Shown: positions 29,478-58,213, numbered from the stretch's first letter. The stretch: 64,000 bases of DNA from Escherichia coli (GCF_022846255.1 NZ_AP025682.1); one strand, 5' to 3'. Notes: generated by a model not told the origin, from the sequence alone. Program-made: numbers and translations.

Positions 29478-30716
29478 ATGGCTGACACTCGCCCTGAACG
29501 TCGCTTTACGCGTATTGATCGTCTCCCGCCCTACGTTTTTAACATTACCGCTGAACTGAAAATGGCTGCGCGTCGGCGCGGCGAAGATATTATCGATTTC
29601 AGTATGGGTAACCCGGACGGTGCGACTTCGCCGCATATCGTCGAAAAATTATGTACGGTGGCCCAGCGCCCGGACACGCATGGTTACTCCACTTCACGCG
29701 GCATTCCGCGGTTACGTCGCGCCATTTCCCGCTGGTATCAGGATCGCTACGACGTTGAAATCGACCCGGAATCAGAAGCCATCGTCACTATTGGTTCGAA
29801 AGAGGGCCTGGCGCATCTGATGCTGGCGACGCTGGATCATGGTGACACAGTGCTGGTGCCGAATCCAAGCTACCCCATTCATATTTATGGCGCGGTGATT
29901 GCCGGGGCGCAGGTACGCTCAGTGCCGCTGGTGGAAGGTGTCGATTTCTTCAACGAACTGGAACGTGCCATTCGCGAAAGTTATCCGAAACCGAAGATGA
30001 TGATCCTCGGCTTCCCGTCGAATCCAACCGCGCAATGCGTGGAGCTGGAGTTCTTCGAAAAGGTTGTGGCGCTGGCGAAACGCTACGATGTGCTGGTGGT
30101 CCACGACCTGGCCTATGCCGATATCGTCTACGATGGCTGGAAAGCGCCGTCAATCATGCAGGTGCCAGGTGCACGCGACGTGGCGGTCGAGTTCTTTACG
30201 CTGTCGAAAAGCTACAACATGGCGGGCTGGCGTATCGGCTTTATGGTCGGTAACAAAACGCTGGTCAGCGCGTTGGCACGTATTAAAAGCTATCACGATT
30301 ACGGCACCTTTACGCCGTTGCAGGTGGCGGCTATTGCGGCGCTGGAGGGCGATCAACAGTGCGTGCGTGATATTGCCGAACAGTACAAACGCCGCCGTGA
30401 TGTGCTGGTGAAAGGGCTGCATGAAGCGGGCTGGATGGTCGAAATGCCGAAGGCTTCGATGTATGTCTGGGCGAAAATCCCGGAACCATATGCTGCTATG
30501 GGCTCGCTGGAATTTGCCAAGAAGCTGCTGAACGAAGCGAAGGTCTGTGTCTCTCCGGGGATTGGCTTTGGCGACTACGGCGACACGCATGTTCGCTTTG
30601 CACTGATTGAAAACCGCGACCGTATTCGTCAGGCGATTCGTGGGATTAAAGCGATGTTCCGTGCCGATGGTTTACTACCCGCCAGCAGCAAACATATTCA
30701 CGAAAACGCGGAATAA
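29478..30716 (+). CDS. alaC: glutamate-pyruvate aminotransferase (class I aminotransferase)
   Basis: 412-aa ORF with PLP-lysine context [12 protein letters not shown]. Confidence 0.88.
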
Positions 30717-30779
30717 CGCCTTCGCCAGAAATGCAAACAGGAGCCTGATGGCTCCTGTTTTTCATTGCACAGTTTGCTT

Positions 30780-30851
30780 TTAGATCATCAGGGCAAAAGT
30801 ACCGGCCCAAACGATGACCATAAAAGAAATGCCCATAAAGAAATATTTCAC
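30780..30851 (-). CDS. ypdK: small membrane protein YpdK (23 aa, GTG start)
   Basis: Minus-strand micro-ORF encoding (M)KYFFMGISFMVIVWAGTFALMI just after alaC; matches my recollection of K-12 ypdK. Confidence 0.45.
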   Translation of the reverse strand: MKYFFMGISFMVIVWAGTFALMI

Positions 30852-31206
30852 TTTACATCTCTCCGCGTAATTACTGTTACGCCTGAATGACTTCATTACA
30901 CCTGATACAGTGAGTTGACACCGGGTAAAACGACCTTAAAAGTCCTGTATTTTACCGTGGGCATCACCCCAGAATTCTGAGCTAAACTGCTCGAGACGGC
31001 GCTAATGTACGCCTAAAACTGAAACGAGACAAGAGGCATTTTCTTATTTACTTTTAGTAACTTACAGGTGTCTCATATCGGCGACAGTTTAATTTCTGAC
31101 GGTAATAATTAGAGATTCAGCGAAGGAAAAAACCTTAAGAAAAAAGCCATAAAAACCATGAGGTTATTATGGCTGATTTGAGGAGGGAAAGAGTAAGAGC
31201 CGTTTG

Positions 31207-32127
31207 TTAAATGTATAGCGACGATTCTCCCACCGGGCGCGTTTTAAAGCGACGGTGGATCCAGAGGTACTGCTCCGGTGCGCGCATGATCTCTTTTTCG
31301 ATAATCTTGTTCATATAGGCAGCGGCTTGATTTTCATCTGCCGGGTAGCCTTCCATCTCTGGGGTGATGTACAAACGATATCCGCTGTAATCTGCTTTTC
31401 TTACCATCGTTACGGTTAACATGGCTGCGCCAGAGAGACGTGAAAGGACATACGTGCCATTGGTTGTGGCGACATTTTCCACCGCAAAGAACGGCGCGAA
31501 GGAGCTGCCTTTACGACCATAATCCTGATCGGGAGCAAACCATACCGCTTCACCTTTCTTCAGTGCACTGACAATGCCGCGCAGATTATTTCTGCCGATC
31601 ATCGCTTTGTTAGAGCGCATGCGACCACGGGTCTGCACCCATTCCATCAGCTGATTATTATGCGGGCGATAGGTGGCCATCATTGGTTGGCAAAGTCCCA
31701 TCACCCGACCGCCCAGTTCCAGCGACATAAAATGGACGCCGACAACCATTACGCCGCGATTTTGCATTTGTGCGCGTTTAAGGTTATCCAGCCCTTCCAC
31801 ATCAAACCATTTACGTACGCGACTGTCGGGCCAGAACCACGCCATGCCGGTTTCTACCAGCGCCATGCCGAGTGAACGAAAGTTTTCGGCAATCATCTTC
31901 TCGCGCTCTTTCGCAGAATGCTGCGGGAAACAAAGTTCCAGGTTTTTACGGGCGATAGATTCACGACGTTTCAGGAATGGTCGCGCCATTGTGCCGATAC
32001 GCGTGCCGAGAAAGCAGAGAACAGGATAAGGAAGCTGTACCCAAAGCCAGAGTACACCAAGCCCAAACCACGTGAGCCAGTAGCGAGGATGCAGAAACTC
32101 GCGGGAAAATTTGCATTTTGGAAACAT
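31207..32127 (-). CDS. lpxP: lipid A palmitoleoyltransferase (LpxL/LpxM family)
   Basis: Track ORF 31207..32193 trimmed to Met-23 (306 aa); lauroyl/myristoyl acyltransferase family features. Confidence 0.85.
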   Translation of the reverse strand: MFPKCKFSREFLHPRYWLTWFGLGVLWLWVQLPYPVLCFLGTRIGTMARPFLKRRESIARKNLELCFPQHSAKEREKMIAENFRSLGMALVETGMAWFWPDSRVRKWFDVEGLDNLKRAQMQNRGVMVVGVHFMSLELGGRVMGLCQPMMATYRPHNNQLMEWVQTRGRMRSNKAMIGRNNLRGIVSALKKGEAVWFAPDQDYGRKGSSFAPFFAVENVATTNGTYVLSRLSGAAMLTVTMVRKADYSGYRLYITPEMEGYPADENQAAAYMNKIIEKEIMRAPEQYLWIHRRFKTRPVGESSLYI

Positions 32128-33074: not shown

Positions 33075-33368
33075 AGAAAATATCCTGAAAATGGTTCACT
33101 GAAAACCTACGATGTTATGGCTGTATTTATATTTAATTAATCAGTATTTACATCGATATAATAAATGACATATCTTTGTGGTATATAAGAATAGTTCTCT
33201 GCGACAGGAAGCAGATTCCTACAACTGTAAGACTAAAAGCGGCTTTGCGATAATAACTACAGTTGTAAGATAACCCTTTCAAAATGTCCGTTGCTCTCTG
33301 ATTTCTCATTTCATGCTCACCCAATATGATGGCGGCGTTTTCTAAAACTGTTAAAGAATGAGGTAAGT

Positions 33369-34001
33369 ATGAAACGTTTAATTATGGCTACTATGGTCAC
33401 AGCAATTCTGGCATCTTCAACTGTATGGGCTGCTGATAATGCACCGGTAGCGGCACAACAGCAAACTCAGCAAGTTAAGCAAACCCAGAAAACGGCAGCA
33501 GCAGAGCGTATCTCTGAACAAGGTTTATATGCGATGCGTGACGTGCAGGTAGCGCGCCTGGCTCTGTTTCATGGCGATCCGGAAAAGGCAAAAGAACTGA
33601 CCAATGAAGCTTCCGCTTTGCTGTCAGATGATAGTACCGAATGGGCAAAGTTCGCTAAGCCAGGTAAAAAGACCAACGTCAATGATGACCAATATATTGT
33701 CATTAATGCATCTGTCGGAATTTCTGAGAGTTATGTAGCGACACCCGAAAAAGAAGCCGCGATAAAAATTGCCAACGAAAAAATGGCGAAAGGGGATAAA
33801 AAGGGTGCAATGGAAGAGCTTCGCCTGGCCGGTGTTGGTGTAATGGAAAACCAATATTTGATGCCGCTTAAACAGACTCGTAATGCACTTGCTGATGCGC
33901 AGAAACTGCTTGATAAAAAGCAATACTACGAGGCAAACCTGGCGCTTAAAGGTGCGGAAGATGGAATCATCGTTGATAGCGAAGCACTGTTTGTGAACTA
34001 A
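33369..34001 (+). CDS. yfdX: periplasmic protein YfdX
   Basis: 210-aa ORF with signal peptide; first gene of the yfdX-frc-oxc-yfdV-yfdE cluster. Confidence 0.8.
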
Positions 34002-34512
34002 ACCTGACAGGCAATATATTGAGGTAAAGGATTTAACTCCCTCCAGTCGACAATTTTTTATGACCACAATACGACAGGTTGTGGTCATAAAATTATTTGG
34101 CGCTCGCGGTGCTATAAACTCGCATTTTATCTTCCTCAAAGTAAACCGCAATAATCCCATATTATCACAAATCATTTATTATGTTATATTTTATGGTACG
34201 CTTTAAATAGTGTAATCATAACCTTACTTGTAAATCACTGACACTTCTTACAGTTGTAAGAATAACATCACAAATGTCGCGGCTCTCTCTGATTACCGCG
34301 AACCAATATTTATTATATTCTTCTTTTCGTCCTCACTACTTACCATGCAGAAAGGAATTGGAAGTAGCGATGAAATGATTTTCAGCACTTGATACAGGAA
34401 TTTAAAAATATCGAGTGCAGCTACGACGATATTTTGCAGATTATTTATAGAGGCGTTATGCCTTAAATAAACGCTAAATTAACACATATTTAATTAACTA
34501 ATAGGTATTGCT

Positions 34513-35763
34513 ATGTCAACTCCACTTCAAGGAATTAAAGTTCTCGATTTCACCGGTGTGCAATCTGGCCCATCTTGTACTCAAATGCTGGCCTGGTTTG
34601 GCGCTGACGTCATTAAAATTGAACGTCCCGGCGTTGGTGACGTAACGCGCCACCAGCTGCGAGATATTCCTGATATCGATGCGCTTTACTTCACCATGCT
34701 TAACAGTAACAAACGTTCTATTGAATTAAATACCAAAACAGCGGAAGGCAAAGAGGTAATGGAAAAGCTGATCCGCGAAGCTGATATCTTAGTCGAGAAC
34801 TTTCATCCAGGGGCCATTGATCATATGGGCTTCACCTGGGAGCATATTCAAGAAATCAATCCACGTCTGATTTTTGGTTCGATCAAAGGGTTTGATGAGT
34901 GTTCGCCTTATGTGAATGTAAAAGCCTATGAAAACGTTGCTCAGGCAGCGGGTGGCGCGGCATCTACTACAGGTTTTTGGGACGGTCCGCCGCTGGTAAG
35001 CGCTGCAGCGTTGGGTGACAGCAACACCGGAATGCATTTGCTGATCGGTTTACTTGCTGCTTTGCTGCATCGCGAAAAAACGGGGCGTGGGCAACGAGTC
35101 ACCATGTCAATGCAGGATGCCGTGTTGAACCTTTGCCGCGTGAAATTACGCGACCAGCAGCGTCTCGATAAGTTGGGGTATCTGGAAGAATACCCGCAGT
35201 ATCCGAATGGCACATTTGGTGATGCAGTTCCCCGCGGTGGTAATGCGGGTGGTGGCGGTCAGCCTGGCTGGATCCTGAAATGTAAAGGCTGGGAAACCGA
35301 TCCTAACGCCTATATTTATTTCACTATTCAGGAGCAAAACTGGGAAAACACCTGTAAAGCCATCGGCAAACCAGAATGGATTACCGATCCGGCATACAGT
35401 ACAGCCCATGCCCGACAGCCACATATTTTCGATATTTTTGCTGAAATCGAAAAATACACTGTCACTATTGATAAACATGAAGCTGTGGCCTATTTGACTC
35501 AGTTTGATATTCCTTGTGCACCGGTTTTAAGTATGAAAGAAATTTCACTTGATCCCTCTTTGCGCCAAAGTGGCAGTGTTGTCGAAGTGGAACAACCGTT
35601 GCGTGGAAAATATCTGACAGTTGGTTGTCCAATGAAATTCTCTGCCTTTACGCCGGATATTAAAGCTGCTCCGCTATTAGGTGAACATACCGCTGCTGTA
35701 TTGCAGGAGCTGGGTTATAGCGACGATGAAATTGCTGCAATGAAGCAAAACCACGCCATCTGA
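34513..35763 (+). CDS. frc: formyl-CoA:oxalate CoA-transferase
   Basis: 416-aa family III CoA-transferase directly upstream of oxc. Confidence 0.88.
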
Positions 35764-35816
35764 TATTAACGGGGGCTTCTGGCTCCCAATTTATAAAAAT
35801 TTCGAGGTTATTAATC

Positions 35817-37511
35817 ATGTCAGATCAACTTCAAATGACAGATGGTATGCATATCATCGTTGAAGCATTAAAACAGAATAATATTGACACTATTTATGGT
35901 GTTGTAGGTATTCCTGTGACGGATATGGCGCGCCATGCCCAGGCGGAAGGCATTCGTTATATTGGTTTTCGTCATGAGCAGTCGGCAGGCTATGCCGCTG
36001 CAGCAAGCGGTTTTCTTACCCAAAAACCAGGGATCTGCCTGACAGTGTCTGCGCCAGGATTCCTCAATGGTTTGACCGCATTGGCCAATGCAACGGTAAA
36101 TGGTTTTCCGATGATCATGATTAGCGGCTCCAGCGACCGCGCGATCGTCGATCTCCAGCAAGGTGATTATGAAGAGCTGGACCAAATGAATGCGGCAAAA
36201 CCGTATGCCAAAGCAGCATTTCGCGTTAATCAGCCGCAGGATCTTGGCATTGCATTGGCACGCGCTATCCGGGTCTCAGTATCGGGTCGTCCTGGCGGTG
36301 TTTATCTTGATTTGCCAGCAAATGTCCTGGCCGCGACGATGGAAAAAGACGAAGCGTTAACCACGATTGTTAAAGTTGAAAATCCGTCGCCAGCATTATT
36401 GCCATGCCCGAAGTCAGTCACTAGCGCAATTTCGCTTTTAGCAAAAGCTGAACGACCATTAATTATCCTTGGCAAAGGCGCGGCGTATTCACAATCTGAT
36501 GAACAGCTTCGTGAATTTATTGAAAGTGCCCAGATTCCATTCCTGCCAATGTCTATGGCGAAAGGGATCCTCGAAGATACGCATCCACTTTCTGCGGCAG
36601 CTGCGCGTTCGTTTGCCCTGGCAAATGCTGACGTTGTCATGCTTGTTGGTGCACGACTGAATTGGTTACTGGCACACGGTAAAAAAGGATGGGCGGCAGA
36701 TACACAGTTTATTCAACTGGATATTGAACCGCAGGAAATTGACAGCAACCGCCCCATTGCTGTGCCAGTCGTTGGCGATATTGCATCCAGTATGCAAGGT
36801 ATGCTGGCAGAATTGAAACAAAACACATTTACGACTCCACTGGTGTGGCGCGATATTTTAAATATCCACAAGCAGCAAAATGCACAAAAAATGCATGAAA
36901 AGTTAAGTACAGATACCCAACCATTAAATTACTTTAATGCATTGAGTGCTGTGCGCGATGTTTTGCGCGAGAACCAGGATATTTATTTAGTTAATGAAGG
37001 GGCAAATACCCTGGATAATGCACGAAATATTATTGATATGTATAAACCACGTCGTCGTCTGGATTGTGGCACCTGGGGTGTCATGGGCATCGGTATGGGC
37101 TATGCCATCGGTGCTAGCGTGACCTCTGGTTCTCCGGTTGTCGCTATTGAAGGTGATAGTGCTTTTGGTTTCAGTGGGATGGAGATTGAAACGATTTGTC
37201 GATATAACCTGCCGGTGACGATCGTTATTTTTAATAATGGCGGCATCTACAGAGGAGACGGTGTTGACCTCAGCGGCGCTGGTGCACCATCGCCAACGGA
37301 TCTGTTGCACCATGCAAGGTATGACAAATTAATGGATGCGTTTCGTGGCGTTGGCTATAACGTCACCACGACAGATGAACTTCGTCATGCTTTAACCACC
37401 GGAATTCAGTCGCGCAAACCGACCATTATTAATGTGGTCATCGACCCAGCAGCAGGAACTGAAAGTGGCCATATTACCAAACTTAACCCAAAACAAGTCG
37501 CTGGTAATTAA
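35817..37511 (+). CDS. oxc: oxalyl-CoA decarboxylase (ThDP-dependent)
   Basis: 564-aa ORF with ThDP-binding motif GDSAFGFSGMEIETICRYNLPVTIVIFNNGG. Confidence 0.9.
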   Translation: MSDQLQMTDGMHIIVEALKQNNIDTIYGVVGIPVTDMARHAQAEGIRYIGFRHEQSAGYAAAASGFLTQKPGICLTVSAPGFLNGLTALANATVNGFPMIMISGSSDRAIVDLQQGDYEELDQMNAAKPYAKAAFRVNQPQDLGIALARAIRVSVSGRPGGVYLDLPANVLAATMEKDEALTTIVKVENPSPALLPCPKSVTSAISLLAKAERPLIILGKGAAYSQSDEQLREFIESAQIPFLPMSMAKGILEDTHPLSAAAARSFALANADVVMLVGARLNWLLAHGKKGWAADTQFIQLDIEPQEIDSNRPIAVPVVGDIASSMQGMLAELKQNTFTTPLVWRDILNIHKQQNAQKMHEKLSTDTQPLNYFNALSAVRDVLRENQDIYLVNEGANTLDNARNIIDMYKPRRRLDCGTWGVMGIGMGYAIGASVTSGSPVVAIEGDSAFGFSGMEIETICRYNLPVTIVIFNNGGIYRGDGVDLSGAGAPSPTDLLHHARYDKLMDAFRGVGYNVTTTDELRHALTTGIQSRKPTIINVVIDPAAGTESGHITKLNPKQVAGN

Positions 37512-37580
37512 ATACTGACATCGTCTCCTCTTGCCAACTTATTATGCGATGGTGAGGGGACCCTTATCGGAAATACTATT

Positions 37581-38525
37581 ATGCTAACATTTTTTATTGG
37601 CGATTTATTGCCTATTATCGTAATCATGCTGTTGGGTTATTTTAGCGGCAGACGAGAAACTTTTTCAGAAGATCAAGCCCGGGCATTTAATAAACTGGTA
37701 TTAAACTACGCTCTTCCTGCGGCTCTATTTGTTTCTATTACCAGGGCAAACAGGGAAATGATTTTTGCGGACACTCGCCTGACCCTTGTATCACTTGTGG
37801 TTATTGTCGGATGTTTCTTTTTCTCCTGGTTCGGTTGCTACAAATTTTTTAAACGTACCCATGCAGAAGCAGCAGTATGTGCATTAATTGCAGGTTCACC
37901 TACCATTGGATTCCTGGGGTTTGCAGTTCTCGATCCTATTTATGGTGATTCCGTATCAACAGGTTTAGTGGTAGCAATTATTTCTATTATTGTTAACGCA
38001 ATTACTATTCCTATTGGTCTGTATTTGCTGAATCCTTCCTCAGGAGCGGATGGTAAGAAGAATAGTAATCTGAGCGCATTAATTTCTGCGGCAAAGGAGC
38101 CAGTAGTATGGGCACCTGTTCTGGCAACGATCCTGGTGCTGGTTGGGGTAAAAATTCCGGCAGCATGGGACCCAACCTTTAATCTGATTGCGAAGGCTAA
38201 CTCAGGGGTAGCGGTATTCGCTGCGGGGTTGACTCTGGCTGCACATAAATTCGAGTTCAGTGCCGAAATTGCTTATAACACTTTCCTGAAGCTGATTCTG
38301 ATGCCACTGGCGCTGCTTCTCGTCGGTATGGCATGTCATTTGAATAGCGAACATTTGCAGATGATGGTACTGGCAGGCGCATTACCGCCGGCATTCTCCG
38401 GAATCATTATTGCCAGCCGGTTTAATGTCTACACCCGCACTGGTACAGCGTCATTGGCTGTGAGCGTACTGGGTTTTGTCGTCACGGCTCCTTTGTGGAT
38501 TTATGTCAGTCGACTGGTTTCATAA
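37581..38525 (+). CDS. yfdV: AEC-family membrane transporter
   Basis: 314-aa polytopic ORF. Confidence 0.8.
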
Positions 38526-38597
38526 TTAATCATGTTATTGATTTTACATAAATGCCGAAGTGTCTTTTCACCTTCGGCTTTTTCAAGGCATAAGCAA

Positions 38598-39743
38598 ATG
38601 ACAAATAATGAATGCAAAGGGCCGTTTGAAGGCTTATTAGTTATCGATATGACGCATGTCCTTAATGGGCCTTTCGGAACTCAACTTCTTTGTAATATGG
38701 GTGCAAGGGTAATTAAAGTTGAGCCGCCGGGTCATGGTGATGATACCCGCACATTTGGTCCCTATGTGGATGGACAGTCACTCTATTACAGTTTTATTAA
38801 TCATGGCAAAGAGAGTGTGGTTCTTGATTTAAAGAATGATCACGATAAAAGTATATTTATAAATATGCTTAAACAAGCTGATGTATTAGCTGAGAATTTT
38901 CGCCCAGGTACAATGGAAAAACTCGGGTTTTCATGGGAAAGGTTACAAGAAATCAACCCGCGCCTTATATATGCTTCATCGTCAGGTTTCGGACATACCG
39001 GTCCGCTAAAAGATGCTCCTGCCTACGATACCATCATTCAGGCAATGAGCGGGATAATGATGGAAACAGGATACCCTGATGCTCCGCCAGTGCGCGTTGG
39101 TACCTCTCTTGCGGATCTCTGTGGCGGTGTTTATTTATTCGGTGGAATAGTGAGTGCACTTTATGGCCGCGAAAAGAGCCAGAGAGGTGCGCATGTCGAT
39201 ATAGCGATGTTTGATGCCACTCTGAGTTTTCTGGAGCATGGACTGATGGCATATATCGCGACTGGGAAGTCACCACAACGCCTGGGAAATCGCCATCCCT
39301 ACATGGCACCTTTTGATGTTTTCGATACTCAGGATAAGCCGATTACGATTTGTTGTGGTAATGACAAGCTTTTTTCTGCGTTATGCCAGGCACTGGAGCT
39401 TACGGAACTGGTTAATGATCCCCGATTTAGCAGCAATATTTTACGCGTACATAACCAGGCTATTCTTAAAGAATATATTGAGCGGACGTTAAAAACGCAG
39501 GTAGCTGAAGTTTGGTTAGCCAGAATACATGAAGTTGGTGTGCCCGTCGCGCCGTTATTAAGTGTGGCTGAGGCCATTAATTTACCACAAACTCAGGCGA
39601 GAAATATGTTGATTGAAGCCGGGGGAATAATGATGCCGGGTAATCCGATAAAAATCAGCGGCTGCGCGGACCCGCATGTTATGCCGGGAGCGGCAACGCT
39701 CGACCAGCATGGGGAACAAATTCGCCAGGAGTTCTCATCATAA
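38598..39743 (+). CDS. yfdE: acetyl-CoA:oxalate CoA-transferase (family III CoA-transferase)
   Basis: Track ORF 38532..39743 trimmed to Met-23 (381 aa); paralogous to frc. Confidence 0.8.
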   Translation: MTNNECKGPFEGLLVIDMTHVLNGPFGTQLLCNMGARVIKVEPPGHGDDTRTFGPYVDGQSLYYSFINHGKESVVLDLKNDHDKSIFINMLKQADVLAENFRPGTMEKLGFSWERLQEINPRLIYASSSGFGHTGPLKDAPAYDTIIQAMSGIMMETGYPDAPPVRVGTSLADLCGGVYLFGGIVSALYGREKSQRGAHVDIAMFDATLSFLEHGLMAYIATGKSPQRLGNRHPYMAPFDVFDTQDKPITICCGNDKLFSALCQALELTELVNDPRFSSNILRVHNQAILKEYIERTLKTQVAEVWLARIHEVGVPVAPLLSVAEAINLPQTQARNMLIEAGGIMMPGNPIKISGCADPHVMPGAATLDQHGEQIRQEFSS

Positions 39744-39798
39744 ATGTAAGATGTGCTGGTAAATAGCTCCCACATTTGAACATTGTGGGAGCCGCTAT

Positions 39799-42700
39799 TT
39801 AGTCATTTTGCTGACAGAAAACAGTAATCTCCTGGTCCAGCTCTGCAATGTGTTCTTTTACAGAGTTCAGCAACTGAAGAATTTCAGGCTTACTGTCATC
39901 TGAAACAGGTGTTATTTCTAACTGGTGGCTAATATTAATCAACTTTTGCAAATTCAGGATGTTAGCCGCACCGTGGATGCGATGAATACACTGATGGAAA
40001 GTTCTGTTATCGCCAGCTTCTAGTGCATGAAACGCAGCGGGTAGATCTTTATGCGTTTCATGCTGGAAAGTCATGAGAATCTCCTGCATCAGTTGTAGAT
40101 CATTCGCCGTATTATTCTTCAGGGCCTCGATATCAAGGTGGCGATACTGAGGTGCAATATGCGCAACCTGGTGTAACTGACTTAAATGTGTTTTCAGTAC
40201 ATCCAGAGTCAACGGTTTGAACAAACATAAGTTCATGCCGCAATTTAACCCTTTTTCACGTTCGTTAGCCTGTGCGTTGGCTGTAAGCCCCCAGATGGGT
40301 AAGGAAGAATTTTGCTCACGGAGTTTGCGAGTCAACTCAAAACCATCCATATTCGGCATATTAACGTCAGTAATAAGCAGATCATAATGTTGCATACTGA
40401 CTTTGTGTAGCGCTTGCACACCATCAGTGGCTTCATCAACATCATATCCTAATAGATTTAGCTGGCGTTTGAGTAATAGCCTGTTGGTCGGATGATCATC
40501 CGCGATTAATATGCTCAACTTTTCAGGGAGTGTTATAGGTTGTTCTGCTTTTGCCTCGACAGCCGCCACTTGTTGGGTAATTTCTACCGGGATTGTGATC
40601 GTAAATATCGTTCCTATGCCTGGATGACTTTCTAATGACAAATCGCCCTGCATGTTTTTAATTAATTCTTTGCAGATCATTAAGCCTAAACCAGAACCTG
40701 TTTGCTGACGACCTGCACTTGTTTGGCTATAGCGTTTAAACAGTTGTTGTTGTTCTTCCTGAGATAATCCACTTCCAGAATCCATAATCGTCATTTTGAT
40801 AACAGCGTGGTTGTCATCAATGTGACCCAGGGAGGTCGTAATTTTTACTGCCCCCTCGGTAGTAAATTTGAGAGCATTACTCAGTAAATTAGATAAGACC
40901 TGCTTAAACGCCTGAGGGTCGATCTTAACCAGGTAGCGTTCAGGAAGCGTACTGCTGCAACTTAATGCGATCGATTTGCTTGCAGCAATCGCAGCGAAAG
41001 AGTGACAAGTGTTCTGGACTAAAGTAGGGATATCGACCCATTGTGGTTGAAGTTGATAGTTACCCGATTCAATTTTGTCGACATCAAGGATTTCACCAAT
41101 TAAGCCGAGGAGTGATTGTCCGGTGGCGTAGGCAAGTGAAATCGCCTCCACCCGTTGTTCCTTGCTAAGACCAGAACCCGACAGTAGTTCCAGGAAGCCC
41201 ATAATGGAGCTTATTGGTGTTCTTATTTCGTGACTCATTGTTGCCAGAAACTGGCTTTTTGCGACAGTTGCATTGATCGCTTTATTTCTCTCTACTTCGA
41301 GTGCATGAATTAAATCACGCGTCTCGGTAATATCTTGCCAACCACAAATATAAACAGCATGTTCGCTTGCTGGCAGATTACATAAGGTATGCCAGTGATT
41401 AATGCATCTTTTCTCGATGCCATTATCAATTTCAAATACCTGTGTGTATATTGTTCGGTTTTCTTTCGTTTCTGCTGTGACTTCATGCGTATTAGAAAAA
41501 ACATCTTTAAAGGGGGATTCACTGTTTTCTAATGGTAACATTGCATTTTTATAGTAATCAGCAGTGAAATAATGTTCAAATGCACTATTGTGACTAATGA
41601 CATTACCTTGCCAGTTTACAACATAAGTTGGATTCGGTAAGGAATCCGAGAGCGCTTTCCGGAATGATATTTGGTTTTCTAAATCACCCTGAATAACTTT
41701 ACGACGACGAACTGAGCGTAACAGGTAGAATCCCCATAAAAGGCTACTGCCAACTAATAAAACGGATAATGTCGTAACAATATAAAATTGCTCGCTATAG
41801 AGGTCCCATGTGTCAATGGTCACATTGGGCATTTTAATCCATTTTTCGGTCAGGCGCAGAACTTCGCTTGGGGGAATTGCATTCAGTGCTTTATTAATAA
41901 TATCCTTAAGTTCCGGTTCTCCGCGAGGAAAAGCGAACGAAAGTGATGCATTCTGAACGCCGGGAATAAGAAAATGATAAAGTTCATTAGGATAGTAATG
42001 GTCGATCATGTAACGCGAATTTAACTGTGTCGCGACCAGAGCATCAAGTTCACCTTCCTTGACCTTGTGAAATGCAGCGCTGGCGTTATCGACTTTTATC
42101 CACTCTACCTCCGGATACATCTCTTTTAATTGCGAATGAAGCTCATAATAATATGGAATGGCAACTTTCATTCCTTTTTTTAATGTTTGTTCACTGTCAG
42201 GCGCTTTTTGCATGACAAAAACGTAAGGCGTTGTTATGAAGACTTCAGCAAATGAAACATTATTTTCTCGATCTTCACTATAAATAGCGGCGGGCAATAT
42301 ATCCCATCCACCGGGGTTAAGCTGTGTCCCAGCATGAATATTATGTGAAACGGTGATCGGAGAAAAATTTAAACCTGTTTGCAAGGTAATAATATTAAGA
42401 ATATCACCCATCACGCCCCGAACTGAGCCAGTTTCATCTGTCATAGAATAGGGTGGCGAGTAAGGATTTTCCAGCACCTTTAAATCGGGATGCTGCTTAA
42501 TCCACTGTTTTTCATGTTCAGTGAGTTCTAATGGTTTGTTCAGAAAGGCCAGGTTTCCTGTATCAAGCCAATTTTGTGATACTTCATAGCGAACTTCATT
42601 TGTTAAAGCATCAACAAATCGATTGAGTACTTCATTAAGAACGATTGAATCTTTTCTGGTTAATAAAAAGTTAAATTGACGCGGTGAGTTATAATACTTC

Positions 42701-43392
42701 ACTACATTTAAGGAGTGAGTAAAATAACGGGAAATCATACTGCTGGTAATGATGTTACTACCAATAAAGTAATCATTCTGTCCGGCTGAGACGGATGCTA
42801 ATGCCTGATATAAATTTGTAAAAGAGATAATTGTTGCTTTTGGAAATGATTGATGAATTACCTCGTCTGGGGGATAATTTGCTACTCGAGCAATATTTAC
42901 TGGTTTTGATGAGGTAAGCGGTCGCATTGAATCGTGAAGGGTAGTGACCAGCGCCGGAAAGGTAATTATCAGAGGATTAGTTGCAGCAATGTCATCATTA
43001 AGAGGCGGCGAAGCAACTAAATGTGATAACACTATATCAACTTCACCGTCTTCCAGCGCGTCCATTGCTTTTTGATGATCTGCGTATTCCCGGAGTGTTA
43101 ATTTGATATTTAACGCTCTTTTTAAAAGATTTAAATAATCAGCATTAATACCACGAATCCGTTGCTGCGAATCGGTATGCAACAACGTAGCTGTTTGGGA
43201 CTTGTGTACTGCAATCACAAGATTTTTTTTGCTCGCGAGCCAACGTAATTCCTTGTTGCTCAGACGTAGTGGATCAAGTGTGACACGGTTGTTACTACTG
43301 ATGCCACGATATTCGATGTAATCTCCGTCTGCGAAACTTATGGTCGACCAAAGACCACAACAGAGAAGAAAAATATAGGGTAAAAACTTCAT
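39799..43392 (-). CDS. evgS: hybrid sensor histidine kinase EvgS
   Basis: 1197-aa ORF: tandem periplasmic solute-binding-like domains, TM, PAS, kinase, receiver and HPt domains. Confidence 0.93.
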   Translation of the reverse strand: MKFLPYIFLLCCGLWSTISFADGDYIEYRGISSNNRVTLDPLRLSNKELRWLASKKNLVIAVHKSQTATLLHTDSQQRIRGINADYLNLLKRALNIKLTLREYADHQKAMDALEDGEVDIVLSHLVASPPLNDDIAATNPLIITFPALVTTLHDSMRPLTSSKPVNIARVANYPPDEVIHQSFPKATIISFTNLYQALASVSAGQNDYFIGSNIITSSMISRYFTHSLNVVKYYNSPRQFNFLLTRKDSIVLNEVLNRFVDALTNEVRYEVSQNWLDTGNLAFLNKPLELTEHEKQWIKQHPDLKVLENPYSPPYSMTDETGSVRGVMGDILNIITLQTGLNFSPITVSHNIHAGTQLNPGGWDILPAAIYSEDRENNVSFAEVFITTPYVFVMQKAPDSEQTLKKGMKVAIPYYYELHSQLKEMYPEVEWIKVDNASAAFHKVKEGELDALVATQLNSRYMIDHYYPNELYHFLIPGVQNASLSFAFPRGEPELKDIINKALNAIPPSEVLRLTEKWIKMPNVTIDTWDLYSEQFYIVTTLSVLLVGSSLLWGFYLLRSVRRRKVIQGDLENQISFRKALSDSLPNPTYVVNWQGNVISHNSAFEHYFTADYYKNAMLPLENSESPFKDVFSNTHEVTAETKENRTIYTQVFEIDNGIEKRCINHWHTLCNLPASEHAVYICGWQDITETRDLIHALEVERNKAINATVAKSQFLATMSHEIRTPISSIMGFLELLSGSGLSKEQRVEAISLAYATGQSLLGLIGEILDVDKIESGNYQLQPQWVDIPTLVQNTCHSFAAIAASKSIALSCSSTLPERYLVKIDPQAFKQVLSNLLSNALKFTTEGAVKITTSLGHIDDNHAVIKMTIMDSGSGLSQEEQQQLFKRYSQTSAGRQQTGSGLGLMICKELIKNMQGDLSLESHPGIGTIFTITIPVEITQQVAAVEAKAEQPITLPEKLSILIADDHPTNRLLLKRQLNLLGYDVDEATDGVQALHKVSMQHYDLLITDVNMPNMDGFELTRKLREQNSSLPIWGLTANAQANEREKGLNCGMNLCLFKPLTLDVLKTHLSQLHQVAHIAPQYRHLDIEALKNNTANDLQLMQEILMTFQHETHKDLPAAFHALEAGDNRTFHQCIHRIHGAANILNLQKLINISHQLEITPVSDDSKPEILQLLNSVKEHIAELDQEITVFCQQND

Positions 43393-43396
43393 GTGG

Positions 43397-44011
43397 TTAG
43401 CCGATTTTGTTACGTTGTGCGAATGTGTAAAGATCCATCAGTGATTTGCATTCTAATTTTTCCATCAAGCGACTTTTATAAGTGCTGACAGTTTTGTTGC
43501 TGATGAACATTTTTTCAGCAATGTCATTATTATCCTTGCCATCAAGAATATACCGCATGACACTAATTTCTTGTTTCGATAAGGAGTCGAGTTTTTGCTG
43601 GTCGGACGTTAAACTTCCAACAAACCGGTTGAGAGAGAAGGGGAAATAGCAGTAGCCATTTTTTGCAGCTTCAATAGCTGCAATGATATTGTTCATGCCT
43701 TCTTTTTTACTCACGAAACCATTAGCGCCAGCATCAGCACAATGTTTCCCGTAAAAATGGTCATTTTTAGCGGAGACAATAATAATAATTCCGCTATATT
43801 GGCGCTTTCTCAGCGTTTCTAACACCTGGATACCGTTAACTCCGGGGATATCGACATCAATGATGACGATATCAGGCTTAAGTGTTTCCACCCGCTGAAC
43901 GGCGCTTCCGCCTTCAGTCAACTCTGCTAAGATTTCAATATCGTTTTTGATCAATAAATTACGAATTGCTGCGATAGCAAGAGGATGGTCATCAATAATT
44001 ATTGCGTTCAT
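43397..44011 (-). CDS. evgA: response regulator EvgA (NarL/LuxR family)
   Basis: 204-aa ORF with receiver domain and LuxR-type HTH. Confidence 0.93.
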   Translation of the reverse strand: MNAIIIDDHPLAIAAIRNLLIKNDIEILAELTEGGSAVQRVETLKPDIVIIDVDIPGVNGIQVLETLRKRQYSGIIIIVSAKNDHFYGKHCADAGANGFVSKKEGMNNIIAAIEAAKNGYCYFPFSLNRFVGSLTSDQQKLDSLSKQEISVMRYILDGKDNNDIAEKMFISNKTVSTYKSRLMEKLECKSLMDLYTFAQRNKIG

Positions 44012-44236
44012 AGATTATTCCCTTTGCAATGAAGCATTTCCCTTCTCCCTGTAGTAATACAGACATAAGGTATCATCTCATTTTCTCAATAAAAATAAGA
44101 AAATTTGAGCTTCCTTTAAGATAATTCGACAAGTATACCATATAAATAGTCGGCATAAATAAAATGTCAACAATAAAATCAGGGATGATACCGATGATTT
44201 ATAGTTTCAAATGAGCACTATAAGTTTTCTCACTAA

Positions 44237-44253
44237 TCCTACAGGCGTAAGAA
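44237..44253. promoter_or_regulatory. candidate EvgA box (imperfect inverted repeat TCCTACA-GG-CGTAAGAA) in the evgA-emrK divergent region
   Basis: Resembles the EvgA consensus as I recall it (TTCYTACA...TGTARGAA). Confidence 0.4.
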
Positions 44254-44426
44254 TTGTATTGCAAAAGCCGCGGTTTAGTCCTCTGTTGTTATTTTTGCAC
44301 TTCATTTAAATTAGCCCTCCAACGTTCCCGGGATAATGTGCAAAACATGCACTGTGTTTGATATGAGGAATGAATACTCTTTTCATTCAATTCATAAATT
44401 TCATCTATGCGAAATGAGAGATAATA

Positions 44427-45590
44427 GTGGAACAGATTAATTCAAATAAAAAACATTCTGACAGAAGAAAATATTTTGCTTTGTTAGCGGTAGTTTTATT
44501 TATTGCGTTTTCAGGTGCCTATGCCTATTGGTCAATGGAATTAAAAGACATGATTAGTACAGATGACGCCTATGTCACGGGAAATGCAGATCCAATTTCT
44601 GCACAAGTCTCAGGCAGCGTCACTGTCGTTAATCATAAAGATACGAACTACGTTCGACAAGGTGACATTTTAGTTTCACTGGATAAAACTGATGCCACTA
44701 TCGCACTCAATAAAGCTAAAAATAATCTGGCAAATATTGTTCGGCAAACGAATAAACTATACTTACAGGATAAACAATACAGTGCCGAAGTCGCTTCAGC
44801 ACGTATTCAGTATCAACAATCTTTAGAAGATTATAACCGTCGTGTGCCTTTAGCGAAGCAAGGGGTTATTTCAAAAGAAGCGCTGGAGCATACCAAAGAT
44901 ACGTTAATAAGTAGCAAAGCGGCATTGAATGCTGCTATCCAGGCTTATAAAGCGAATAAAGCTTTAGTAATGAACACACCATTAAACCGTCAGCCACAAG
45001 TCATTGAAGCTGCAGATGCAACCAAAGAAGCCTGGTTGGCGCTTAAACGTACGGATATTAAGAGTCCGGTTACCGGTTATATTGCCCAGAGAAGTGTTCA
45101 GGTCGGCGAAACAGTGAGTCCCGGACAATCATTAATGGCTGTCGTACCGGCGCGTCAAATGTGGGTTAATGCCAACTTTAAAGAAACACAACTCACGGAT
45201 GTACGGATTGGTCAATCGGTCAATATTATCAGCGATCTTTATGGTGAAAATGTTGTGTTTCATGGTCGGGTGACAGGGATCAATATGGGAACCGGCAATG
45301 CGTTCTCCTTATTACCTGCACAAAATGCGACAGGGAACTGGATCAAAATCGTTCAGCGTGTACCGGTTGAAGTTTCTCTGGATCCAAAAGAACTCATGGA
45401 ACACCCTTTGCGCATTGGTTTATCGATGACTGCAACTATTGATACGAAGAATGAAGACATTGCCGAGATGCCCGATCTGGCTTCAACCGTGACGTCCATG
45501 CCTGCTTATACCAGTAAGGCTTTAGTTATCGATACTAGTCCGATAGAAAAAGAAATTAGCAACATTATTTCGCATAATGGACAACTTTAA
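44427..45590 (+). CDS. emrK: multidrug efflux membrane fusion protein (HlyD family)
   Basis: 387-aa ORF with N-terminal TM, coiled-coil and beta-barrel segments; EmrA paralogue. Confidence 0.88.
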   Translation: MEQINSNKKHSDRRKYFALLAVVLFIAFSGAYAYWSMELKDMISTDDAYVTGNADPISAQVSGSVTVVNHKDTNYVRQGDILVSLDKTDATIALNKAKNNLANIVRQTNKLYLQDKQYSAEVASARIQYQQSLEDYNRRVPLAKQGVISKEALEHTKDTLISSKAALNAAIQAYKANKALVMNTPLNRQPQVIEAADATKEAWLALKRTDIKSPVTGYIAQRSVQVGETVSPGQSLMAVVPARQMWVNANFKETQLTDVRIGQSVNIISDLYGENVVFHGRVTGINMGTGNAFSLLPAQNATGNWIKIVQRVPVEVSLDPKELMEHPLRIGLSMTATIDTKNEDIAEMPDLASTVTSMPAYTSKALVIDTSPIEKEISNIISHNGQL

Positions 45591-47128
45591 TGGCAATCAC
45601 TAAATCAACTCCTGCACCATTAACCGGTGGGACGTTATGGTGCGTCACTATTGCATTGTCATTAGCGACGTTTATGCAAATGTTGGATTCCACTATTTCT
45701 AACGTCGCAATACCGACAATATCTGGCTTTCTGGGAGCATCAACAGACGAAGGCACCTGGGTTATCACCTCGTTTGGCGTAGCAAATGCCATTGCGATCC
45801 CTGTTACCGGCAGGCTGGCACAAAGAATAGGCGAATTAAGGTTATTTTTACTTTCAGTAACCTTTTTTTCGCTGTCTTCATTAATGTGTAGTTTATCGAC
45901 CAATCTTGATGTGCTGATATTTTTTAGAGTCGTTCAGGGGTTAATGGCGGGGCCGTTAATTCCACTGTCACAGAGTTTATTATTAAGGAATTATCCACCA
46001 GAAAAAAGAACATTTGCTCTGGCATTATGGTCAATGACCGTGATTATCGCTCCGATATGTGGGCCGATATTGGGCGGCTATATTTGCGATAACTTTAGCT
46101 GGGGTTGGATATTTTTAATCAATGTCCCTATGGGGATTATCGTCCTGACATTATGCTTAACCTTACTTAAAGGACGAGAAACTGAGACTTCACCGGTCAA
46201 AATGAATCTACCAGGACTGACCCTGTTAGTGCTCGGTGTTGGTGGCTTGCAAATTATGCTTGATAAAGGGCGCGATCTGGATTGGTTCAACTCGAGTACA
46301 ATAATACTACTAACAGTAGTATCAGTTATTTCTCTGATCTCTTTAGTCATTTGGGAGTCGACCTCAGAGAATCCGATTCTTGACCTCAGTTTGTTTAAGT
46401 CCCGTAATTTCACCATTGGTATTGTGAGTATCACATGCGCGTATTTATTTTACTCTGGAGCGATAGTTCTTATGCCGCAGTTACTCCAGGAAACGATGGG
46501 GTATAATGCGATATGGGCCGGACTTGCCTATGCGCCCATCGGTATCATGCCGCTATTAATATCACCTTTGATAGGACGTTATGGCAACAAAATTGATATG
46601 CGGTTGTTGGTGACATTTAGTTTTTTGATGTATGCGGTTTGCTATTACTGGCGTTCTGTGACATTTATGCCAACGATTGATTTTACAGGCATCATTTTGC
46701 CACAGTTTTTTCAGGGATTCGCCGTTGCCTGTTTCTTTTTACCCTTAACAACGATTTCGTTTTCAGGCTTGCCAGATAATAAATTTGCCAATGCCTCGAG
46801 TATGAGTAATTTTTTTCGCACCTTGTCAGGATCAGTTGGTACGTCGTTGACAATGACACTGTGGGGACGCCGCGAATCGTTACACCATAGTCAGTTGACA
46901 GCAACCATCGATCAATTTAACCCCGTGTTTAATTCATCGTCACAAATTATGGATAAATACTATGGTTCGCTTTCAGGAGTTCTTAATGAAATTAATAATG
47001 AAATAACTCAGCAGTCACTTTCTATTTCTGCAAATGAGATTTTCCGTATGGCGGCTATTGCTTTTATCTTACTTACGGTTTTGGTTTGGTTTGCGAAACC
47101 GCCGTTTACAGCGAAAGGCGTTGGGTGA
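45590..47128 (+). CDS. emrY: multidrug efflux MFS transporter (DHA2, 14 TM)
   Basis: 512-aa polytopic ORF; start overlaps the emrK stop (ATGA-type coupling). Confidence 0.88.
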   Translation: MAITKSTPAPLTGGTLWCVTIALSLATFMQMLDSTISNVAIPTISGFLGASTDEGTWVITSFGVANAIAIPVTGRLAQRIGELRLFLLSVTFFSLSSLMCSLSTNLDVLIFFRVVQGLMAGPLIPLSQSLLLRNYPPEKRTFALALWSMTVIIAPICGPILGGYICDNFSWGWIFLINVPMGIIVLTLCLTLLKGRETETSPVKMNLPGLTLLVLGVGGLQIMLDKGRDLDWFNSSTIILLTVVSVISLISLVIWESTSENPILDLSLFKSRNFTIGIVSITCAYLFYSGAIVLMPQLLQETMGYNAIWAGLAYAPIGIMPLLISPLIGRYGNKIDMRLLVTFSFLMYAVCYYWRSVTFMPTIDFTGIILPQFFQGFAVACFFLPLTTISFSGLPDNKFANASSMSNFFRTLSGSVGTSLTMTLWGRRESLHHSQLTATIDQFNPVFNSSSQIMDKYYGSLSGVLNEINNEITQQSLSISANEIFRMAAIAFILLTVLVWFAKPPFTAKGVG

Positions 47129-47235: not shown

Positions 47236-48564
47236 TTAACGGCCTTTTGCCAGATATTGATTCATCTCTTCTTCCGGCACCATTCCACCTCCCGTCGCCC
47301 ACACCAGATGAGTGGCATTACGCAGTTGTTCTGCGCTGAAACCGTGCATCTGTTGGTAACTTACTGATGCGCACACGCGCTGAGACCCGGCCATACCCGC
47401 CAGTGCCGATGGTTCAAGACGAATACCTTCTTCCTGCGCCAGCCAGCCAAGCATGTCATACATGGTTTGATCGCTAAGGGTATAGAAGCCATCCAGCAGA
47501 CGCTCCATCGCCCGCCCGACAAAGCCCGATGCGCGACCAACCGCAAGGCCATCGGCAGCGGTAAGGTTGTCGATGCCAATATCCTGAACAGAAATCTGAT
47601 CGTGTAATCCGGTATGGACGCCTAATAACATACACGGGGAGTGTGTTGGTTCGGCAAAAAAGCAGTGAACATGATCGCCAAACGCCAGTTTAAGTCCGAA
47701 TGCGACGCCACCAGGACCACCGCCAACACCACACGGCAGATAGACAAATAGAGGGTTATCAGCATCGACGATACGGCCTTGCTGGGCAAATTGCGCTTTA
47801 AGACGCTGGCCAGCGACGGAATACCCAAGGAACAACGTGCGGGAATTCTCGTCATCAATAAAGAAACAGTTCGGGTCAGACTGCGCGGCTTTACGTCCTT
47901 CCTCGACGGCAACACCATAATCTTGCTCGTATTCCACGACAGTAACGCCATGACTGCGCAGTTTCGCTTTTTTCCAGGCGCGGGCATCAGCAGACATATG
48001 CACCGTTACTTTAAAGCCGATGCGGGCGCTCATAATACCAATTGATAACCCCAGATTTCCGGTTGATCCCACAGCAATACTGTATTGGCTAAAGAACTGT
48101 TTAAACTCCGGGGAAAGCAGTTTGCTGTAGTCATCTTCAAGCGTCAGCAACCCCGCTTCCAGAGCCAGTTTTTCTGCATGTGCCAGGACTTCATAAATCC
48201 CGCCGCGTGCTTTTATGGAGCCGGAAATAGGCAAATGGCTGTCTTTTTTTAGTAGCAATTGCCCGGCGATCGGTTGTTGATATTCCTTTTCCAGCCGTTT
48301 TTGCATAGCAGGAATAGCAACCAGTTCTGATTCAATAATCCCCCCCGCGGCAGCCGTTTCAGGAAATGCTTTTGCCAGATACGGCGCAAAACGAGACAGG
48401 CGCGCATGGGCGTCCTGAACATCCTGTTCGGTCAGGCCAACATAAGGTAAACCTTCTGCCAATGAGGTCGTGCCAGGATTAAACCAGGTGGTTTCTTTAA
48501 GAGCAACCAGATCCTCTACCAACGGATACTGGGCGATGAGCGAATTCATTTTAGCGTTTTCCAT
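47236..48564 (-). CDS. dsdA: D-serine ammonia-lyase (D-serine dehydratase)
   Basis: 442-aa PLP-enzyme ORF with lysine motif SGSIKARGG. Confidence 0.92.
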
Positions 48565-48581
48565 AGTACGTCTCTTTGCGC

Positions 48582-49919
48582 TTAGATGATAAATGACAGC
48601 AGGAATGTGCCCGCCAGAGCGATGACTGAAGCGATAAATGTCGCTGTCGTATAGTATTTAAATGTTTCATTGAGCGTAGCGCTGCAATATTGCTTCACCA
48701 GCCAGAAAAGCGAGTCTGTCACGATTGTGCAGCCAATTGCGCCCGAACCGATGGCAATTGCAATAATTTCCGGGCTGATGTCGGGATACAGCGGCAGCAT
48801 GGGTGCAACAATTGCCGTTGCCCCCATCATTGCCACCGTAGCGGAGCCCACTGCAGCATGCAGAATAAGTGCCACCAACCAGGCCAGAAGAATCGGGTGC
48901 ATATGCATATTGGAGAGAATAACTGCCAGCGTATCAGCGAGACTGCTGCTTTTTAAAATGGCGTTGAATGCGCCTCCGGCCCCGATAATCAGCAAAATAT
49001 TAGCAATAGAACCGAAACCATTTTCCGTATGTGTGAGCATCGTCCCCATGCTCATATGCTGACGTATACCCAACACATAATAGGCGACAAACACGGCGAT
49101 AAACATGGCAGTGATAGGGTTGCCAATAAACTCAAGCAAGGTATACAAACCACTCTCACGCGCCATATTCAATTCGGCAATCGTTTTCACCAACATCAGC
49201 GCAATGGGCAGCAGTACGGTGAATAACGTTGCGCCTAATGACGGTAGTGTTTTTTCATCGCGAACTTTGAGATCGGCAAACTCTGTGGGTACAGGCTTAA
49301 AGGGCAGTCGTTGACCCAGAAATTTAAGGAAAAGCGGGCCACCGATCAGTGATGCCATCAGCCCAACCAGCAAACCGTAGACGATCACCGAACCGATATC
49401 TGCGCCCAGCTTATTGGCAACATATAAAGCAGCCGGATGTGGAGGAACCACGCAGTGCACTGCCATCAATGCGGTACACAGCGGAATGGCCAGCTTTAAC
49501 AATGAGGTATTGGTTTTTTTGGCAATTGAAAAAGCCAGAGGAATCAATAGTACGACGCCCACTTCAACAAACAGCGTGATGCCGCAAATCAGGCCAACCA
49601 GCACCATAATGACATCAGCCGAAAGCCAGCGGCAGCGCTGAAGTGTCAGACCAATTCTTTCTGCGGCACCGGATACTTCCATCATTTTTCCCAGTATCGT
49701 GCCAAGGCCGATAACCGCAGCGAGGAAACCCAGCGTTCCGCCAATTCCACTTTCAATAGCATTTACCATATCCAGTGGTCCCATACCCATCATCGTTCCC
49801 ACGAAGAAGCTGGCCAGCAACAGCGCCAGAAACGGGTGGAATTTGAACTTCACGATGGTCAGTACAATTAACACGATGCTGATAAGCAGCGTGCTCACAA
49901 CCCAGATTTGAGAGTGCAT
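48582..49919 (-). CDS. dsdX: D-serine transporter (GntP family)
   Basis: 445-aa polytopic ORF upstream of dsdA. Confidence 0.9.
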
Positions 49920-51259: not shown

Positions 51260-51460
51260 TTACCCATTGGCGCGGCTTAAGAGCTTATTTTTGAATTCAC
51301 AATGGTCACGATATAACCATCTTGCTCTCCCGTGGATAACTTTGGCTTTTGGCAGGTCGCCGGACTTAATCCGGTCATAGATGAAGGTTTTACCGAAGCC
51401 AGTATCGGCCATGATGAATTTCAAATCAACCAGTGAATCAGGTTGTAGTTCGTGTTGCAT
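51260..51460 (-). CDS. torI: TorI-type excisionase / recombination directionality factor (66 aa)
   Basis: 66-aa ORF MQHELQPDSLVDLKFIMADTGFGKTFIYDRIKSGDLPKAKVIHGRARWLYRDHCEFKNKLLSRANG; matches my recollection of TorI, and is an AlpA/Xis-like winged-helix protein. Confidence 0.8.
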   Translation of the reverse strand: MQHELQPDSLVDLKFIMADTGFGKTFIYDRIKSGDLPKAKVIHGRARWLYRDHCEFKNKLLSRANG

Positions 51461-51478
51461 GAGTGCTATCTCCGAATA

Positions 51479-51494
51479 GGGAATCGAACCTGCA
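51479..51494 (-). other. second tRNA-derived fragment: 16-nt exact match to the argW T-arm (TTGCAGGTTCGATTCC on the minus strand)
   Basis: Exact 16-mer, about 300 bp inside the prophage, immediately upstream of torI. Confidence 0.55.
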
Positions 51495-51504
51495 AATCAG
51501 GCAA

Positions 51505-51525
51505 TAAAAAACCGCATTGATGCGG
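51505..51525 (-). terminator. rho-independent terminator (minus strand) downstream of the 114-aa gene
   Basis: Hairpin ccgcatcaatgcgg followed by a T-run on the minus strand. Confidence 0.5.
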
Positions 51526-51584
51526 CAATGGTAGGTCTGGATATCTTGAGAAATGAACGGGCCTCATCGAGTGTGAGGCTGTGG

Positions 51585-51929: not shown

Positions 51930-51956
51930 TTCTTGTCTCCAATAAAAAAACCGCCA

Positions 51957-52725: not shown

Positions 52726-52828
52726 AACTTACCTTTCTTACAGTTTCGACCGCGTTATGGAGTTGTGAGATTTTTATCGATTTATGTGATATATAAAAGA
52801 TAGATACCATCGAAAAAATTGATAGATT

Positions 52829-58210: not shown

Positions 58211-58213
58211 CTA

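Follow-up and report, generated by a model that had tools for sequence, protein, structure and literature searches.

Intact yfdX-frc-oxc-yfdV-yfdE, evgSA and emrKY genes and a phylogroup-B2-type EvgS at a conserved Escherichia coli locus

A stretch of 64,000 nucleotides (nt) of Escherichia coli DNA (NZ_AP025682.1, assembly GCF_022846255.1), called the window below, was analysed for its positions 33369-47128, where the open reading frame (ORF) table of the 64-kb window showed nine long ORFs. An earlier note on this DNA had described these positions as an EvgAS-controlled acid/oxalate and efflux cluster, with yfdX-frc-oxc-yfdV-yfdE, evgSA and emrKY all full length. The gene identities were confirmed by the RefSeq annotation of near-identical genomes and by NCBIfam models. 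Annotation in the top-matching genomes listed yfdX, frc, oxc, yfdV, yfdE, evgS, evgA, emrK, and emrY. For seven of the nine proteins, the score exceeded the cut-off set for the matching NCBIfam equivalog model; EmrK and EmrY passed subfamily cut-offs.

The yfdX gene (33369-34001, plus strand) encoded a YfdX-family periplasmic protein of 210 amino acids (aa) (NF007645, 375 bits against a cut-off of 256; PF10938). It was followed on the same strand by frc (yfdW), encoding formyl-CoA:oxalate CoA-transferase (34513-35763; 416 aa; TIGR03253, 784.6 bits against 504.2; Asp at position 169), and oxc (yfdU), encoding oxalyl-CoA decarboxylase (35817-37511; 564 aa; TIGR03254, 1045.2 bits against 739.4). 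Next on the plus strand lay yfdV, encoding a putative transporter of the auxin-efflux-carrier (Mem_trans) family (37581-38525; 314 aa; NF007384, 714.1 bits against 404; PF03547), and yfdE, encoding acetyl-CoA:oxalate CoA-transferase (38598-39743; 381 aa; NF008511, 877.8 bits against 522; Asp at position 173). The longest ORF of yfdE began at 38532, and the orthologous start was at 38598. In the module for oxalate-induced acid tolerance, frc, oxc, yfdE, and yfdV all passed equivalog cut-offs; the functions of the four products are as described in PMC3720670. A run of T at 38574-38578, which precedes the yfdE start by 20 nt, had five bases in the window and six in both K-12 and Nissle 1917.

The minus strand carried evgS (39799-43392), encoding a hybrid sensor kinase of 1197 aa (NF007420, 2885.1 bits against 1995, residues 1-1197 aligning on profile positions 1-1197). 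Its Pfam architecture comprised SBP_bac_3 (two stretches), HisKA (711-777), HATPase_c (825-937), and Response_reg (961-1070). At E <= 1e-5, Hpt was not among the Pfam models listed for EvgS; the alignment to the EvgS equivalog model ran through the full C-terminal region, and H1137 was in place. H721, D1009, and H1137, which we take to be the phosphorelay residues, were all present in local sequence equal to that of K-12. The evgA gene (43397-44011, minus strand) encoded a NarL/FixJ-type response regulator of 204 aa (NF007419, 437.9 bits against 251), with Response_reg at 4-114, GerE at 142-198, and D52 present. Upstream of it on the same strand was evgL (44008-44037), whose coding sequence for the 9-aa leader peptide MLHCKGNNL was identical to K-12 b4781 and whose stop overlapped the evgA start through ATGA. 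The 5' leader of evgA (44019-44114, minus strand) held four GGA motifs, which are candidate CsrA sites, at 44114-44112, 44048-44046, 44041-44039, and 44021-44019. In K-12, four GGA motifs of the evgA leader are bound by CsrA, which represses at these motifs, and evgA translation requires evgL translation (PMC11210196).

An adaptor gene of the EmrA/EmrK family and a gene for a permease of the DHA2 14-transmembrane-segment type lay side by side on the plus strand. The first was emrK, encoding the periplasmic adaptor of the EmrKY-TolC pump (44427-45590; 387 aa; GTG start; TIGR00998 EmrA/EmrK subfamily, 484 bits against 390.8), and the second was emrY, encoding the DHA2 MFS permease of the same pump (45590-47128; 512 aa; TIGR00711, 570.2 bits against 230.2). 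The two genes overlapped by 1 nt, as in K-12. Scores with the EmrA-specific model (494 against a cut-off of 563) and the EmrB-specific model (762 against 925) were both below the cut-off, as expected for the EmrK/EmrY paralogues.

Translation of the nine genes gave one terminal stop codon per gene and no internal stops. When the alignment to the K-12 reference proposed in the earlier note was run, neither frameshift nor truncation was found, and the claim that all genes are full length held at every one of the nine positions, with no frameshift or premature stop relative to K-12 MG1655 or Nissle 1917. Gene lengths equalled those of the annotated K-12 and Nissle 1917 orthologues, with yfdX against K-12 as the sole exception. 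Three-way DNA alignment showed that the insertions and deletions relative to K-12 inside the cluster were an in-frame yfdX codon and two single-base intergenic events at 34450 and 38578; two more single-base events lay just beyond emrY, at 47131 and 47162. Nucleotide identity to K-12 ranged by gene from 96.2 to 99.0%. Nothing counts against intactness, and on sequence comparison each of the nine is an intact orthologue of its K-12 counterpart.

BLAST analysis of the stretch 33369-47128 (13,760 bases) was performed by megablast against 5,426 complete E. coli genomes, and a match was found in 5,422 of them. The top matches were phylogroup-B2 strains of the sequence type 73 (ST73) kind (Nissle 1917, ATCC 25922, ABU 83972), with 99.7% identity over 100% of the query. 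A single place covered at least 80% of the stretch in 5384/5426 genomes; an intact cluster is therefore the norm. The K-12 MG1655 counterpart was located at 2480638-2494402, with the same genes in the same order and in the opposite orientation relative to the window. The neighbours were also as in K-12, with ypdI-yfdY-lpxP-alaC on one side and dsdA-dsdX-dsdC on the other. In about 42 of the 5,426 genomes, no contiguous copy reached 80% coverage of the stretch. One of the strains with a loss at this locus was F404 (NZ_OY754364.1), in which an IS1B insertion and a deletion were found at record positions 2348-4129; the yfdE 3' end, evgS, evgA, emrK, and the 5' part of emrY were gone, with IS1 in their place. 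F404 is a natural counter-example to universal intactness of the cluster.

The closest known system was emrYK-evgLAS-yfdE-yfdV-oxc-frc-yfdX of K-12 MG1655 (b2367-b2375, NC_000913.3), which shared with the window the genes, their order, relative orientation and overlaps, the flanking genes, the evgL coding sequence, and the evgA-evgS spacing of 4 nt. EvgA, Frc, and YfdV were identical to the K-12 proteins (EvgA and YfdV also to those of Nissle). Relative to K-12, EvgS differed at 40 of 1197 residues, far more than any other protein of the cluster; YfdE had 8 differences, EmrK 6, Oxc 1, and EmrY 1, and YfdX had 2 substitutions and was one residue shorter, the codon for A43 being missing here as it is in Nissle. 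The ST73 B2 genomes (Nissle 1917, CP022686; ATCC 25922; ABU 83972) were closer still, with no coding insertion or deletion over the 13,760 bases, identical YfdX, YfdV, EvgA, EmrK, and EmrY, and an EvgS one residue apart; unlike the cluster, the flanking dsdA, dsdX, lpxP, and alaC DNA was noticeably more divergent. A more distant likeness was to BvgS/BvgA of Bordetella, which shares two periplasmic Venus-flytrap (VFT; SBP_bac_3) domains, a PAS/linker, HisKA-HATPase, receiver and HPt parts, and a NarL-type partner (PMC5573083); this likeness is one of architecture, not of sequence comparison, and the regulon and signals of BvgS/BvgA are different.

Within the region, the window and Nissle differed at 44 places, comprising 43 substitutions and one 1-nt intergenic deletion; the shortened T run upstream of yfdE was the only insertion or deletion relative to Nissle in the cluster. 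Thirty-five of the differences were synonymous, five were intergenic, and four changed an amino acid, and the excess of synonymous changes fits purifying selection. The amino-acid changes were Frc S40G, Oxc G377S (each the single difference of its protein from Nissle), YfdE S182G (likewise), and EvgS Y240F. For Frc S40G and Oxc G377S, the window had the K-12 state. The first three were considered as private changes and rejected: YfdE S182G is a common allele, with the exact window protein on 516 contigs, and the Frc and Oxc proteins were on at least 1000 contigs each.

The consensus of the EvgA-binding site (Masuda and Church 2003, Mol Microbiol 48:699) is reportedly an 18-bp inverted repeat with the halves TTCYTACA and TGTARGAA on either side of NN, i.e. 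TTCYTACANNTGTARGAA. A search of the 64 kb with TTCYTACANNTGTARGAA at up to 3 mismatches gave 4 matches, against 0.67 expected by chance, and 4 were also reached in 1 of 100 shuffles. All 4 lay in the promoter regions of yfdX, frc, and evgA-emrK, which make up about 1.2 kb of the 64 kb; the probability of such a random co-location was estimated at about 1e-7, which is negligible. Two were upstream of yfdX: TTCCTACAACTGTAAGAC at 33216-33233, with 1 mismatch and ending 136 nt before the yfdX ATG, and the weaker TAACTACAGTTGTAAGAT at 33254-33271, with 3 mismatches. The first was identical to Nissle and differed from K-12 at a single position, in the unspecified NN spacer; both K-12 differences of the second were also in the NN spacer. 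The candidate box upstream of frc, TTCTTACAGTTGTAAGAA at 34245-34262, matched the consensus perfectly, ended 251 nt before the frc ATG, and was identical in K-12 and Nissle.

The fourth candidate box, ATCCTACAGGCGTAAGAA at 44236-44253 in the evgA-emrK divergent region, had 2 mismatches and lay upstream of both genes, 174 nt from the emrK GTG and 225 nt from the evgA ATG. The earlier note had placed a candidate EvgA box at 44237-44253, which is 17 of the 18 bases of ATCCTACAGGCGTAAGAA; the full 18-mer was base-for-base the same in K-12 and in Nissle, while 21 other positions of the 415-bp intergenic region differed from K-12. The earlier note's account of regulatory sites was correct for this box and incomplete in that the three boxes at 33216-33233, 33254-33271, and 34245-34262 were not given. 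EvgA-binding inverted repeats have been reported upstream of yfdX and of yfdW/frc (PMC3720670), and emrK is a direct EvgA target used as an EvgA reporter (PMC5706723).

A likely intrinsic terminator followed yfdX at 34056-34092 on the plus strand, consisting of a hairpin with a 15-bp stem and then a T-rich tail. Its folding energy was -22.7 kcal/mol (z = -5.95; 0/200 shuffles folded as well), and there were no K-12 differences inside it. The position of the hairpin between yfdX and the frc box fits two putative transcription units, yfdX and frc-oxc-yfdV-yfdE. The terminator scan found none in the convergent gap between yfdE and evgS and only a weak minus-strand candidate in the gap between emrY and dsdA. 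In the evgA-emrK and yfdX-frc intergenic regions, matches from sigma-70 scans were no commoner than in shuffled sequence; such scans were uninformative, as expected for activator-dependent promoters. The Rfam scan of the whole window found tRNAs at 7.8-11.1 kb only and nothing within 33369-47128.

By approximate domain boundaries, 23 of the 40 EvgS differences to K-12 were periplasmic, 5 were in the PAS/linker, 7 were in the kinase core, and the rest were within the receiver and HPt parts or between them. C671, C683, F577, S600, L152, H226, and P522 were conserved relative to K-12, in which L152, H226, and P522 are needed for EvgS induction (PMC5573083). The window EvgS equalled Nissle 1917 EvgS with Y240F as its one difference and is a B2-type allele. 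The implied number of EvgS differences between Nissle and K-12 is 39, which agrees with the 96.74% identity given in PMC5706723.

Natural EvgS alleles have been compared by Roggiani et al. (PMC5706723), who found that EvgS sequences group by phylogroup. At pH 5.7, no stimulation was seen for EvgS from the B2 strains MP1, Nissle 1917, UTI89, and CFT073, so that four of the five tested B2 strains were unresponsive to pH, and the fifth, E2348/69, was responsive (PMC5706723). The substitution F577S renders MP1 EvgS constitutive, showing that the protein is functional, and K-12 evgAS placed in Nissle and UTI89 restored both reporter induction and acid resistance (PMC5706723). E2348/69 EvgS is set apart from that of the other nine strains by S382, N859, and A1191 (PMC5706723). 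The window EvgS had A382, D859, and V1191, as in K-12 and Nissle, and was therefore without the three E2348/69-specific residues.

The exact EvgS with Y240F was on record only as BDH32570.1 / WP_244331710.1, from a single contig. The 61-mer around the site matched 1,244 complete genomes, none of which had Y240F and each of which showed exactly one mismatch; genomes with more diverged evgS alleles gave no match in this test and hence are outside the 1,244. By these sequence records, Y240F is apparently a private, strain-specific substitution.

The best explanation, held at a probability of about 90%, is that 33369-47128 is a conserved E. coli chromosomal locus in which an EvgS/EvgA phosphorelay with a B2-type EvgS lies between two sets of target genes that are assumed to be directly activated by EvgA as in K-12. 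From published K-12 work, phosphorylated EvgA would bind the 18-bp inverted repeats and so activate, on one side, emrKY, for an MFS-type tripartite efflux pump using TolC, and, on the other side, yfdX and frc-oxc-yfdV-yfdE. The latter four genes would provide oxalyl-CoA formation and decarboxylation, the basis of the oxalate-induced acid tolerance response. Translation of evgA would depend on that of evgL and would be repressed by CsrA. Published natural alleles suggest that the B2-type EvgS would be a functional kinase that mild acid does not trigger. As the earlier note had said in presenting the cluster as known biology and context only, the locus is ordinary, fully intact E. coli core genome, every element of which has already been described in K-12; what the analysis adds is limited to the identification of the B2-type EvgS, likely blind to mild acid, and of the private Y240F.

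The earlier description of the cluster as controlled by EvgAS in response to acid needs to be divided. The wiring is intact; mild acid is probably not the input signal here, given that the Nissle-type EvgS was reported unstimulated at pH 5.7, with its downstream regulon still linked to EvgA (PMC5706723). By analogy with Nissle, it is fairly probable that the circuit is wired as in K-12 and that the kinase is most likely functional yet not triggered by mild acidity (pH 5.7); the B2-type EvgS would presumably respond to some other, non-acid input. That L152, H226, and P522 are conserved agrees with PMC5706723, in which no single domain explained the insensitivity. In annotation, 'intact evgAS' is not to be equated with 'K-12-like acid induction', and predictions of exponential-phase acid resistance or of induction of emrKY or the oxalate module should weigh the EvgS allele.

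Several points weigh against this explanation. The acid-blindness is extrapolated from a protein that is one residue different and was tested in another strain background. The pH insensitivity was mapped to no domain or residue, all MP1/K-12 hybrids being pH-responsive (PMC5706723), and a single substitution could therefore change the behaviour. Y240F, a conservative change, is placed 14 residues from H226 in the periplasmic VFT1 domain; no functional data on EvgS position 240 were found in the literature searched. A B2 strain, E2348/69, does respond to pH (PMC5706723). The downstream nodes safA-ydeO, ydeP, and gadE are located outside the window, as is tolC, which has its place elsewhere on the chromosome.

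The strongest alternative is that the behaviour is exactly K-12-like, with mild acid activating EvgS and, through it, emrKY, yfdX, and frc-oxc-yfdV-yfdE, the B2-type polymorphisms, possibly helped by Y240F, leaving pH sensing in place. The residues known to be needed for K-12 induction (L152, H226, P522, and the PAS residues F577 and S600) are conserved, and the response of E2348/69 and of every K-12/MP1 hybrid implies that insensitivity needs combined changes and could be fragile; in addition, the flanks of the window are atypical of ST73 B2 genomes, pointing to a strain background unlike that of the tested strains. Set against this, four of the five tested B2 strains were unresponsive, among them Nissle, whose EvgS differs by one conservative residue, and the residues specific to the responsive E2348/69 are absent here, which leaves K-12-like induction unlikely while still deserving consideration. 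A narrower proposal, that Y240F itself changes what the kinase senses, for instance through renewed pH sensing or an altered tuning of the non-acid input of the B2-type EvgS, is given only a slim chance; if it were true, the strain would offer a natural test of how one residue affects signal perception by EvgS.

It is more improbable again that the cluster is full length and cryptically non-functional, with Y240F or one of the single-nucleotide polymorphisms (SNPs) at 44049, 44291, and the T5 run 38574-38578 disabling EvgS or the expression of evgA or yfdE. Y240F is private to one contig on record (0/1244 of the 61-mer-matching genomes), and the T run in front of yfdE is one base shorter than in both K-12 and Nissle; but a change of Tyr to Phe is conservative, the 35 synonymous against 4 amino-acid changes argue for continued selection, the EvgA boxes, evgL, GGA motifs, and start codons are unaffected, and at position 44049 the window equals K-12 and Nissle is the one that differs. 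Finally, there is next to no probability that the 18-mer at 44236-44253 fits the EvgA consensus by chance and plays no part in regulation: it has two consensus mismatches, one shuffle in 100 also reached four matches, and the sigma-70 scan gave no convincing promoter at a suitable distance, but the confinement of all four matches to three promoter regions, the invariance of the 18-mer in K-12, Nissle, and the window amid 21 differing positions, and the use of emrK as a direct EvgA target and reporter (PMC5706723) argue against chance.

The evg cluster had closer counterparts among complete genomes than did the flanks of the window. For positions 1-25000 (ligA to ptsP), identity was 98.9% at best, and the top matches were avian pathogenic E. 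coli (APEC) O78:H4-type strains. Dense SNP clusters relative to Nissle were seen in the alaC-lpxP and dsdA-dsdX flanks (30400-31500 and 47300-49800). The strain looks mosaic or derived from a poorly sampled lineage. The tRNA clusters flanking gltX comprised four genes at 7796-8190 on the minus strand and two at 10889-11076 on the plus strand. In the annotation of a close relative, the gltX-flanking tRNAs are Lys-Val-Val-Val and Ala-Ala, and they are ordinary core genome.

A lambdoid prophage adjoined dsdC from 51260 to 64000 and continued past the end of the window; K-12 has CPS-53 at that site. Because of this prophage beside dsdC, the last 17 kb were covered only to 72%. The argW tRNA was absent from the window in the Rfam scan. 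The prophage carried a torI-like excisionase gene (51260-51460, minus strand), exo, bet, and gam (55879-57643, minus strand), an S24/CI-like repressor gene (58521-59273, minus strand), a cro-like gene (59316-59546), the replication genes O/P (60152-61869), ren (61866-62168), a gene for an SMR (EmrE/QacE-like) transporter (62182-62568, plus strand), and a BD-FAE esterase gene (62627-63670, minus strand).

In the early-left region of the prophage, a gene for a PACE/BTP-family transporter of the chlorhexidine-efflux type (52267-52725, minus strand) was divergent to a LysR regulator gene (52829-53713, plus strand), a pair that resembles the AceI/AceR arrangement. The 1.9-kb PACE-LysR segment was complete in no deposited phage record. 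Among the 5,426 complete E. coli genomes, it was complete in only 13, several of which were soil or water isolates.

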